Part shown: positions 6,867 to 8,230 of the stretch, in pieces
Position numbering within the stretch: position 1 is the stretch's first letter
Layout: the number at the start of each line of letters is the position of its first letter
Assembly (NCBI RefSeq): GCF_056712565.1
Contig: NZ_CM160072.1
Strand: one strand, 5' to 3'
Length of the DNA stretch: 64,000 bases
Translations under genes and position numbers: made by a program
The notes under the pieces: model-generated
The model's database searches: none
What the model saw: only the letters and a program-made list of their open reading frames with translations
Told to the model about the DNA's origin: nothing

Positions 6867-8230
6867 ATGTCCACAATTACATTGTTATGCATTGCGTTAG
6901 CTGGCGTAATCATGCTGTTGCTACTGGTCATCAAGGCAAAGGTACAACCATTCGTTGCTCTGCTCCTCGTCAGCCTGTTAGTCGCACTTGCGGCGGGTAT
7001 ACCGGCGGGCGAAGTGGGTAAAGTGATGATCGCCGGGATGGGCGGTGTGCTTGGTTCCGTCACTATTATTATTGGTCTGGGCGCTATGCTGGGGCGTATG
7101 ATCGAACACTCTGGTGGTGCAGAGTCACTGGCTAATTATTTCAGTCGCAAGTTAGGTGACAAACGAACTATCGCTGCGCTGACTCTGGCAGCGTTCTTCC
7201 TCGGTATTCCCGTCTTCTTTGATGTCGGCTTTATTATTCTTGCGCCAATCATTTACGGTTTTGCCAAGGTTGCCAAAATATCACCACTCAAATTTGGCCT
7301 GCCTGTCGCTGGGATCATGCTCACTGTTCACGTGGCGGTACCGCCGCATCCAGGCCCTGTCGCCGCAGCGGGGTTACTCCACGCAGACATCGGCTGGCTA
7401 ACCATCATCGGTATTGCGATTTCTATTCCCGTAGGGGTTGTTGGCTACTTTGCAGCGAAAATAATCAATAAGCGCCAATATGCGATGTCGGTCGAGGTAC
7501 TGGAACAGATGCAACTGGCTCCGGCCAGTGAGGAAGGCGCGACAAAATTAAGCGATAAAATAAATCCACCGGGCGTCGCGCTGGTCACCTCGCTAATTGT
7601 TATTCCTATCGCGATTATCATGGCGGGTACGGTTTCTGCAACACTGATGCCGCCTTCGCATCCCCTGCTTGGTACGCTACAGTTGATCGGCTCACCAATG
7701 GTAGCTCTAATGATTGCGCTGGTGCTGGCATTCTGGTTATTGGCTTTACGTCGCGGCTGGAGCTTACAACACACCAGCGACATTATGGGCTCTGCCCTTC
7801 CCACTGCGGCGGTAGTGATTTTGGTTACTGGTGCTGGAGGGGTATTTGGCAAAGTGCTGGTGGAATCGGGCGTCGGTAAAGCCCTTGCCAACATGTTACA
7901 AATGATTGACCTGCCTCTGTTACCAGCCGCATTTATTATTTCACTGGCGCTGCGTGCATCGCAGGGGTCAGCAACCGTAGCAATCCTGACAACCAGCGGG
8001 TTACTCTCAGAAGCGGTGATGGGATTAAATCGATTCAGTGCGTATTGGTGACGCTGGCAGCCTGCTTTGGTGGGCTTGGCGCGTCACATATTAATGACTC
8101 AGGGTTCTGGATTGTGACCAAATATCTGGGGTTGTCGGTAGCAGACGGTCTGAAAACCTGGACAGTGTTAACGACCATTCTCGGTTTTACCGGATTCTTA
8201 ATTACCTGGTGCGTATGGCTCGTCATCTAA
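6867..8230 (+). pseudogene. ygbN: GntP-family permease gene interrupted by a frameshift near its 3' end
   Basis: Two consecutive track ORFs in different frames (6867..8051, 394 aa; 8045..8230, 61 aa). The second carries the conserved GntP C-terminal motif (GASHINDSGFWIVTKYLGLSV). The span 6867..8230 is 1364 nt, not a multiple of 3, so a single in-frame gene is impossible as sequenced; the shift lies within about 8000..8045. Confidence 0.65.

Follow-up and report, generated by a model that had tools for sequence, protein, structure and literature searches.

The stretch of DNA analyzed here (64,000 nucleotides, hereafter the window) carries the ygb locus of Escherichia coli, at the end of which lies ygbN, a gene that the preliminary description had named as the GntP-family permease of the ygbI/ygbJKLMN locus and that both the annotation of relatives and profile matches assign in the same way. 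The features of the locus, in window coordinates, are as follows.

2232..2999, minus strand: ygbI, intact, which encodes the DeoR-type operon repressor; its DNA equals that of SF-468 and UTI89, both of which have it annotated as an intact gene
[quoted passage not shown]
4100..5362, plus strand: otnK (ygbK), 3-oxo-tetronate kinase; intact in its 420-aa form, with SBD_N and a full NBD_C (1-168/168)
5359..5997, plus strand: otnC (ygbL), class II aldolase-fold decarboxylase; intact
6002..6778, plus strand: otnI (ygbM), 2-oxo-tetronate isomerase; intact, NF043033 at 397.8 bits (cutoff 325)
6867..8051, plus strand: 5′ part of ygbN, an ATG-to-TGA frame of 394 aa (388 native residues plus the tail RFSAYW) that matches Pfam GntP_permease at 2-376/440
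8031..8031, plus strand: point of the 1-bp deletion, where one C survives of an ancestral CC (AATCCGATT to AATCGATT)
8032..8230, plus strand: 3′ part of ygbN in the -1 frame, which runs through the 66 C-terminal codons of the native gene (PIQCVLV...WLVI) to its stop; its mechanical ORF is 8045..8230
8049..8051, plus strand: premature TGA in the shifted frame, overlapping the GTG at 8048..8050 of the native downstream frame
8373..9416, minus strand: gene for an MBL-fold hydrolase in convergent orientation (o347/c3302, part of the "pattern III" mutS-rpoS region of B2), from the ORF listing and PMC4209514

All five genes upstream of ygbN are intact, and relatives carry identical copies of each. 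PMC12540250, citing Zhang et al. 2016, assigns the enzymes of the operon to a four-step L-threonate pathway. For YgbN itself, the substrate comes from operon context only; L-threonate, or another C4 acid sugar related to it, is assumed. Expression of ygbJKLMN is repressed by YgbI (bioRxiv 10.1101/2021.06.10.447994; PMC6452873), and because this repression operates under laboratory conditions (bioRxiv 10.1101/2021.06.10.447994), a ygbN null allele would usually be neutral. Since the next gene (8373..9416) is convergent, ygbN is the last gene of its transcription unit, and no polar effect of a deletion within it is expected.

One name in the locus merits separate comment: RefSeq calls otnI (6002..6778, plus strand) an "HPr family phosphocarrier protein" (NCBIfam NF007441). 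By its fold, the product is a xylose-isomerase-like TIM barrel (PF01261), and it passes NF043033; the HPr name for ygbM/otnI looks like a propagated misnomer.

The ygbN reading frame and its predicted product

As recorded in the window, ygbN (6867..8230, plus strand) measures 1364 nt (3 × 454 + 2), against 1365 nt in the intact gene, and, as had been remarked from the letters alone, this length is not a multiple of three. The ORF listing for window positions 6000..9000 resolves the gene into two pieces, both of which the preliminary description had anticipated: a 394-aa ORF at 6867..8051 (plus strand) that ends in ...SEAVMGLNRFSAYW and a stop, the TGA at 8049..8051, and a second ORF of 61 aa at 8045..8230 (plus strand), which lies in another frame, reads MVTLAACFGGLGASHINDSGFW...WLVI, and includes the conserved C-terminal sequence GASHINDSGFW.

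Alignment with the ygbN of other E. coli strains, which had been proposed as a check, places the indel at window 8031, within the interval of ~8000..8045 where a change of frame had been perceived. In a base-by-base comparison with UTI89 ygbN (1365 nt; WP_000104443.1, 454 aa), and in a three-way alignment with UTI89 and K-12, the sole difference from UTI89 is CC to C at this position, with a match of 1165 bases to its left and of 200 bases to its right. The intact gene (b2740, "o454"; UTI89_RS15150) is thus like that of the window in 1364 of 1365 nt, and in UTI89 it has the same place in the mutS-rpoS region, flanked by otnI (ygbM) and the B2-specific gene for an MBL-fold hydrolase; unlike it, the window copy is without one C at 8031, and its frame is broken after codon 388. 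Apart from the same change, the window gene equals the intact 454-codon gene of both UTI89 and SF-468. At the site itself, aatCCgatt has become aatCgatt (ancestral AATCCGATT to AATCGATT), and restoring the C in silico at 8031 yields ...GLNPIQCVLVTLAAC... and a 454-codon frame, which is exactly the repair that had been predicted on the supposition of a single lost C. Set against 4,595 orthologous copies, the one-base difference is direct and not a chance pattern.

The indel has the marks of a frameshift pseudogene: measured against UTI89, K-12, SF-468, Z0117EC0054, and E18055, its length is not divisible by three, and the premature TGA at 8049..8051 removes 66 residues of conserved sequence. 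The truncated product would consist of 388 native residues followed by RFSAYW, the frame shifting after codon 388. In a hydropathy scan, hydrophobic segments at residues ~383-407 and ~432-454 lie in or across the lost part, with GASHINDSGFW between them. The intact ortholog matches Pfam PF02447 GntP_permease over 2-438/440 (513.9 bits) and NCBIfam NF007332 over 1-454/454 (829 bits), whereas the window ORF matches GntP_permease only over 2-376/440, with positions 381-438 encoded in the separate frame. Because the orphan 61-aa C-terminal fragment scores 66.6 bits on its own (GntP_permease 381-438/440), it is conserved to the same degree as the remainder of the family profile. The window ORF gives no full-length match to the GntP family (PF02447; NF007332, the YgbN equivalog; TIGR00791; ~440 positions), and at the level of orthology and synteny the gene shows 99.9% DNA identity to annotated ygbN and has the same neighbors; by these measures it is a ygbN ortholog by descent that, as recorded, encodes an incomplete family member. 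A structure search returned no PDB relative at E ≤ 1, and because no GntP-family structure has been solved, we infer the loss of YgbN function from truncation and conservation: a permease without 15% of its length, including the GASHINDSGFW motif, would be non-functional.

Could the two pieces nonetheless make a working transporter? Low-level -1 ribosomal frameshifting could join them, or reinitiation at the GTG at 8048..8050 could supply a 60-aa C-terminal piece that would assemble with the 394-aa N-terminal piece into a two-piece permease; the TGA at 8049..8051 and the native-frame GTG overlap as GTGA, and the conserved motif is kept in the C-terminal fragment. Split permeases, such as the halves of LacY, can assemble from two pieces. 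We nevertheless consider a functional split ygbN highly improbable. There is no in-frame X XXY YYZ slippery heptamer between 7960 and 8049 and no Shine-Dalgarno-like sequence ahead of 8045/8048; residues 389-395 would be absent and a wrong 6-residue tail present; and the arrangement occurs in 0 of 4,595 other genomes, from which it follows that the two frames are not kept by selection. Programmed frameshifting in particular was rejected, given that the heptamer is missing, that no long A/T run is present for transcriptional slippage, and that the split is not conserved (all 4,595 copies are single-frame).

The deletion also turned an odd palindrome, AATC-C-GATT, into a perfect 8-bp palindrome, AATCGATT, at window 8028..8035, and it created a ClaI site (ATCGAT) at 8029..8034 that is the only one in window 6001..10000. 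Quasipalindrome-templated mutation was considered as a mechanism, the chance of 4-nt arms at a given center being ~0.4%. It was set aside because 4-nt arms without a loop cannot form a hairpin, and the new palindrome at the deletion site is probably a coincidence.

Close relatives and the frequency of the allele

The window comes from an ST95-like B2 strain and runs collinear with ST95-type B2 genomes. Relative to UTI89, it shows 10 SNPs, one in-frame 6-bp repeat change, and no IS1 in pphB, and the ygbN deletion is its only 1-bp indel. The pphB gene (1525..2181, plus strand) is intact in the window and in SF-468 and is interrupted in UTI89 by an IS1A element (1319..2554 in the coordinates of the UTI89 comparison locus). 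The repeat change lies in a LemA-family gene at window 39371, where an in-frame CAGGCG repeat of 6 bp has one copy fewer than in UTI89 and the same number as in SF-468. Near it, the first TPM-domain gene (window ~39700..40600) is annotated as a partial pseudogene in UTI89 (3058084..3058755) and APEC E18055 (1128882..1129553) and as an intact 894-nt CDS in SF-468 (1120617..1121510) and Z0117EC0054; the DNA comparisons show no differences there, and the discrepancy appears to be an annotation inconsistency, not a sequence difference.

Three genomes are the closest relatives of the window. Over the 64,000 bases, SF-468 differs from the window by 2 SNPs plus the deletion. A T at 40885 is common to only two complete genomes, those of Z0117EC0054 (dog, Korea) and APEC E18055 (O2:K1:H7, chicken, Korea), which differ from the window by 3 SNPs plus the deletion and by 2 SNPs plus the deletion, respectively. 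Each of these SNPs (2 to 3 per relative) is private to the genome it comes from, and across the 64 kb none is private to the window. Because every SNP belongs to the relatives, the deletion is the only private change of the window in 64 kb, the window equaling the inferred ancestor of this small clade everywhere but at 8031. There are no further indels in the 64 kb against SF-468, Z0117EC0054, or APEC E18055; therefore, the assembly is not full of indel errors. Two of the private SNPs of the relatives fall in ygcS (30924..32333, minus strand), an MFS transporter gene: P286L in SF-468 (at 31477) and R268S in APEC E18055 (at 31532) are independent missense changes, each private to its genome and 55 bp apart.

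The frequency of the allele was assessed in 5,426 complete RefSeq E. coli genomes, a set that does not include the source assembly. With a 61-nt query across the junction, the deletion was found in 0 of the 4,595 genomes that carry the stretch: all 4,595 matches fall in the 95-99% identity band, and none reaches 100%. The best ygbN matches are annotated as "ygbN: GntP family transporter," each of 1365 nt and at 99.9% identity. Neither the exact 394-aa product nor the exact 61-aa product occurs in a collection of 15 billion proteins, in which the intact 454-aa sequence is found on at least 1000 contigs. The mutant junction was likewise absent from species-representative genomes and from metagenome contigs, the latter being a weak negative in that the intact junction, used as a control, was recovered from only 3 contigs. 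The deletion recorded in the window is a singleton, strain-private allele.

Lesions of the ygb operon and the status of the deletion

Loss of function in this operon has precedents, one of them in K-12. Like the window ygbN, K-12 otnK (ygbK, 388 aa) carries a natural 1-bp deletion whose frameshift cuts off the C-terminal part of a conserved domain, in the same operon. In MG1655 (NZ_CP010439.1), a run of C5 has become C4 at nt 1148 relative to the 420-aa form found in the window and UTI89, leaving 142 of the 168 positions of NBD_C (1-142; compared locus 5235..6401, versus window 4100..5362). Because the K-12 61-nt stretch with the C4 allele is identical in 371 of the 4,573 complete genomes that match it, we take this allele to be certainly real and lineage-fixed. 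The window deletion differs from it in both respects, being a singleton in a CC dinucleotide and not a change in a C5 homopolymer carried by 371 genomes.

A second precedent lies in a close relative. Z0117EC0054 (NZ_CP098206.1) has a nonsense mutation in ltnD, W33* (NBY18_RS05705), in which TGG has become TAG at window position 3292 and which RefSeq annotates as "internal stop." Like the window deletion, it arose independently, is private to its strain, and inactivates a gene of this operon; it differs in being a nonsense substitution, located in the first enzyme gene, and not a frameshift in the transporter gene. The same genome has ygbI Q45L (window position 2866); of the three SNPs private to it in 64 kb, two thus lie within the ygb locus. 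A third route to the loss of ygbN function in natural E. coli is the "o454-negative" pattern I of the mutS-rpoS region, as in EDL933 (PMC4209514). There, the whole gene is gone by replacement of the region, a pattern typical of other phylogroups, whereas B2 strains normally have pattern III with ygbN, as does the window, in which ygbN is present but frameshifted. Among the complete genomes searched, 825 of 5,426 (15%) have no ygbN match. Given the K-12 otnK frameshift, the ltnD W33* of Z0117EC0054, and the 15% of genomes without ygbN, the ygb operon is demonstrably dispensable and decays repeatedly.

Against this background, the deletion can be read as a real event. As recorded, it is a strain-private 1-bp deletion (CC to C at 8031) in the permease gene that ends the L-threonate operon (ltnD-otnK-otnC-otnI-ygbN); it shifts the frame after codon 388, adds six wrong residues, and brings in a stop at 8049..8051, such that the last 66 residues are not part of the protein. 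The strain would then be without the uptake step dedicated to this pathway, although the repressor and all four enzymes would remain, and the deletion would be a very recent mutation and a further step in the decay of a dispensable, often lost locus. In favor of a real mutation are the otherwise clean 64 kb and the place of the change, a run of 2 nt in a gene with 59 longer runs (15 of length 4 and 44 of length 3), all of which were spared. Counting against it are the singleton state of the allele and the lack of a private SNP alongside it in 64 kb, and a lone indel on a substitution-free branch has the appearance of a consensus error.

The main alternative is, accordingly, an error of sequencing or assembly: one base would have been dropped from the consensus, the organism itself having CC and ygbN as an unbroken 454-codon gene. 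Consistent with this are the occurrence of the allele in the window only, as opposed to the 4,595 genomes and the protein and contig collections; its being the sole private change in the 64 kb of the window, unaccompanied by private substitutions; the rest of the gene, which is 100% identical to the allele found on at least 1000 contigs; and the source assembly, which lies outside the RefSeq complete-genome set. The 64 kb, however, show no other indel against three near-identical genomes, and the site is a dinucleotide, whereas errors of long-read and flow-based sequencing concentrate in longer runs, of which ygbN has 59. It also speaks against an error that genuine disruptive alleles occur in this operon, a frameshift in K-12 and a nonsense change in the sister strain. 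The preliminary description had left the choice between pseudogenization and a homopolymer or sequencing error; the either-or statement stands, and the homopolymer part of it fits poorly, CC being no real homopolymer. Our own assessment gives about an even chance that the recorded deletion is a real, very recent null mutation of ygbN that leaves the transporter non-functional. An error in the record is judged to be nearly that probable, at somewhat under one-half, and a small remainder is left to other explanations.

Clustering of lesions and significance

If the deletion is real, the question arises of whether it is also adaptive, as part of a process in which selection inactivates or rewires the ygb operon in parallel within an ST95 (O2:K1:H7-like) subclade. 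Of the six private events of three subclade genomes, three lie within the 6 kb of the ygb locus (the ygbN frameshift of the window and the ltnD W33* and ygbI Q45L of Z0117EC0054), for a binomial P of 0.013 over 64 kb. The locus, however, was chosen because of the finding, and without the deletion that prompted the comparison, the count falls to two of five events (P = 0.07). Only three genomes were compared, and relaxed selection on a normally repressed, dispensable operon gives the same pattern. The clustering of lesions in the ygb locus is suggestive only and not statistically secure, and we regard adaptive loss as unlikely. Were it to hold, it would mean selection to lose or rewire C4 acid-sugar catabolism in extraintestinal or animal hosts, not neutral decay.

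Whichever reading of the deletion holds, the record shows a frameshift of one base, of an ordinary kind, in a transporter gene that is known and dispensable, and it implies no new biology; its significance reaches little beyond annotation hygiene, and the clustering of lesions among close relatives is the only mildly interesting angle. If the record is in error, a one-base correction is needed, and ygbN is intact. If the deletion is real, this would be an ExPEC-type strain without the dedicated permease of a dispensable L-threonate pathway, in which ygbN should be annotated as a pseudogene, and the allele would be a further instance of decay in the polymorphic mutS-rpoS region.
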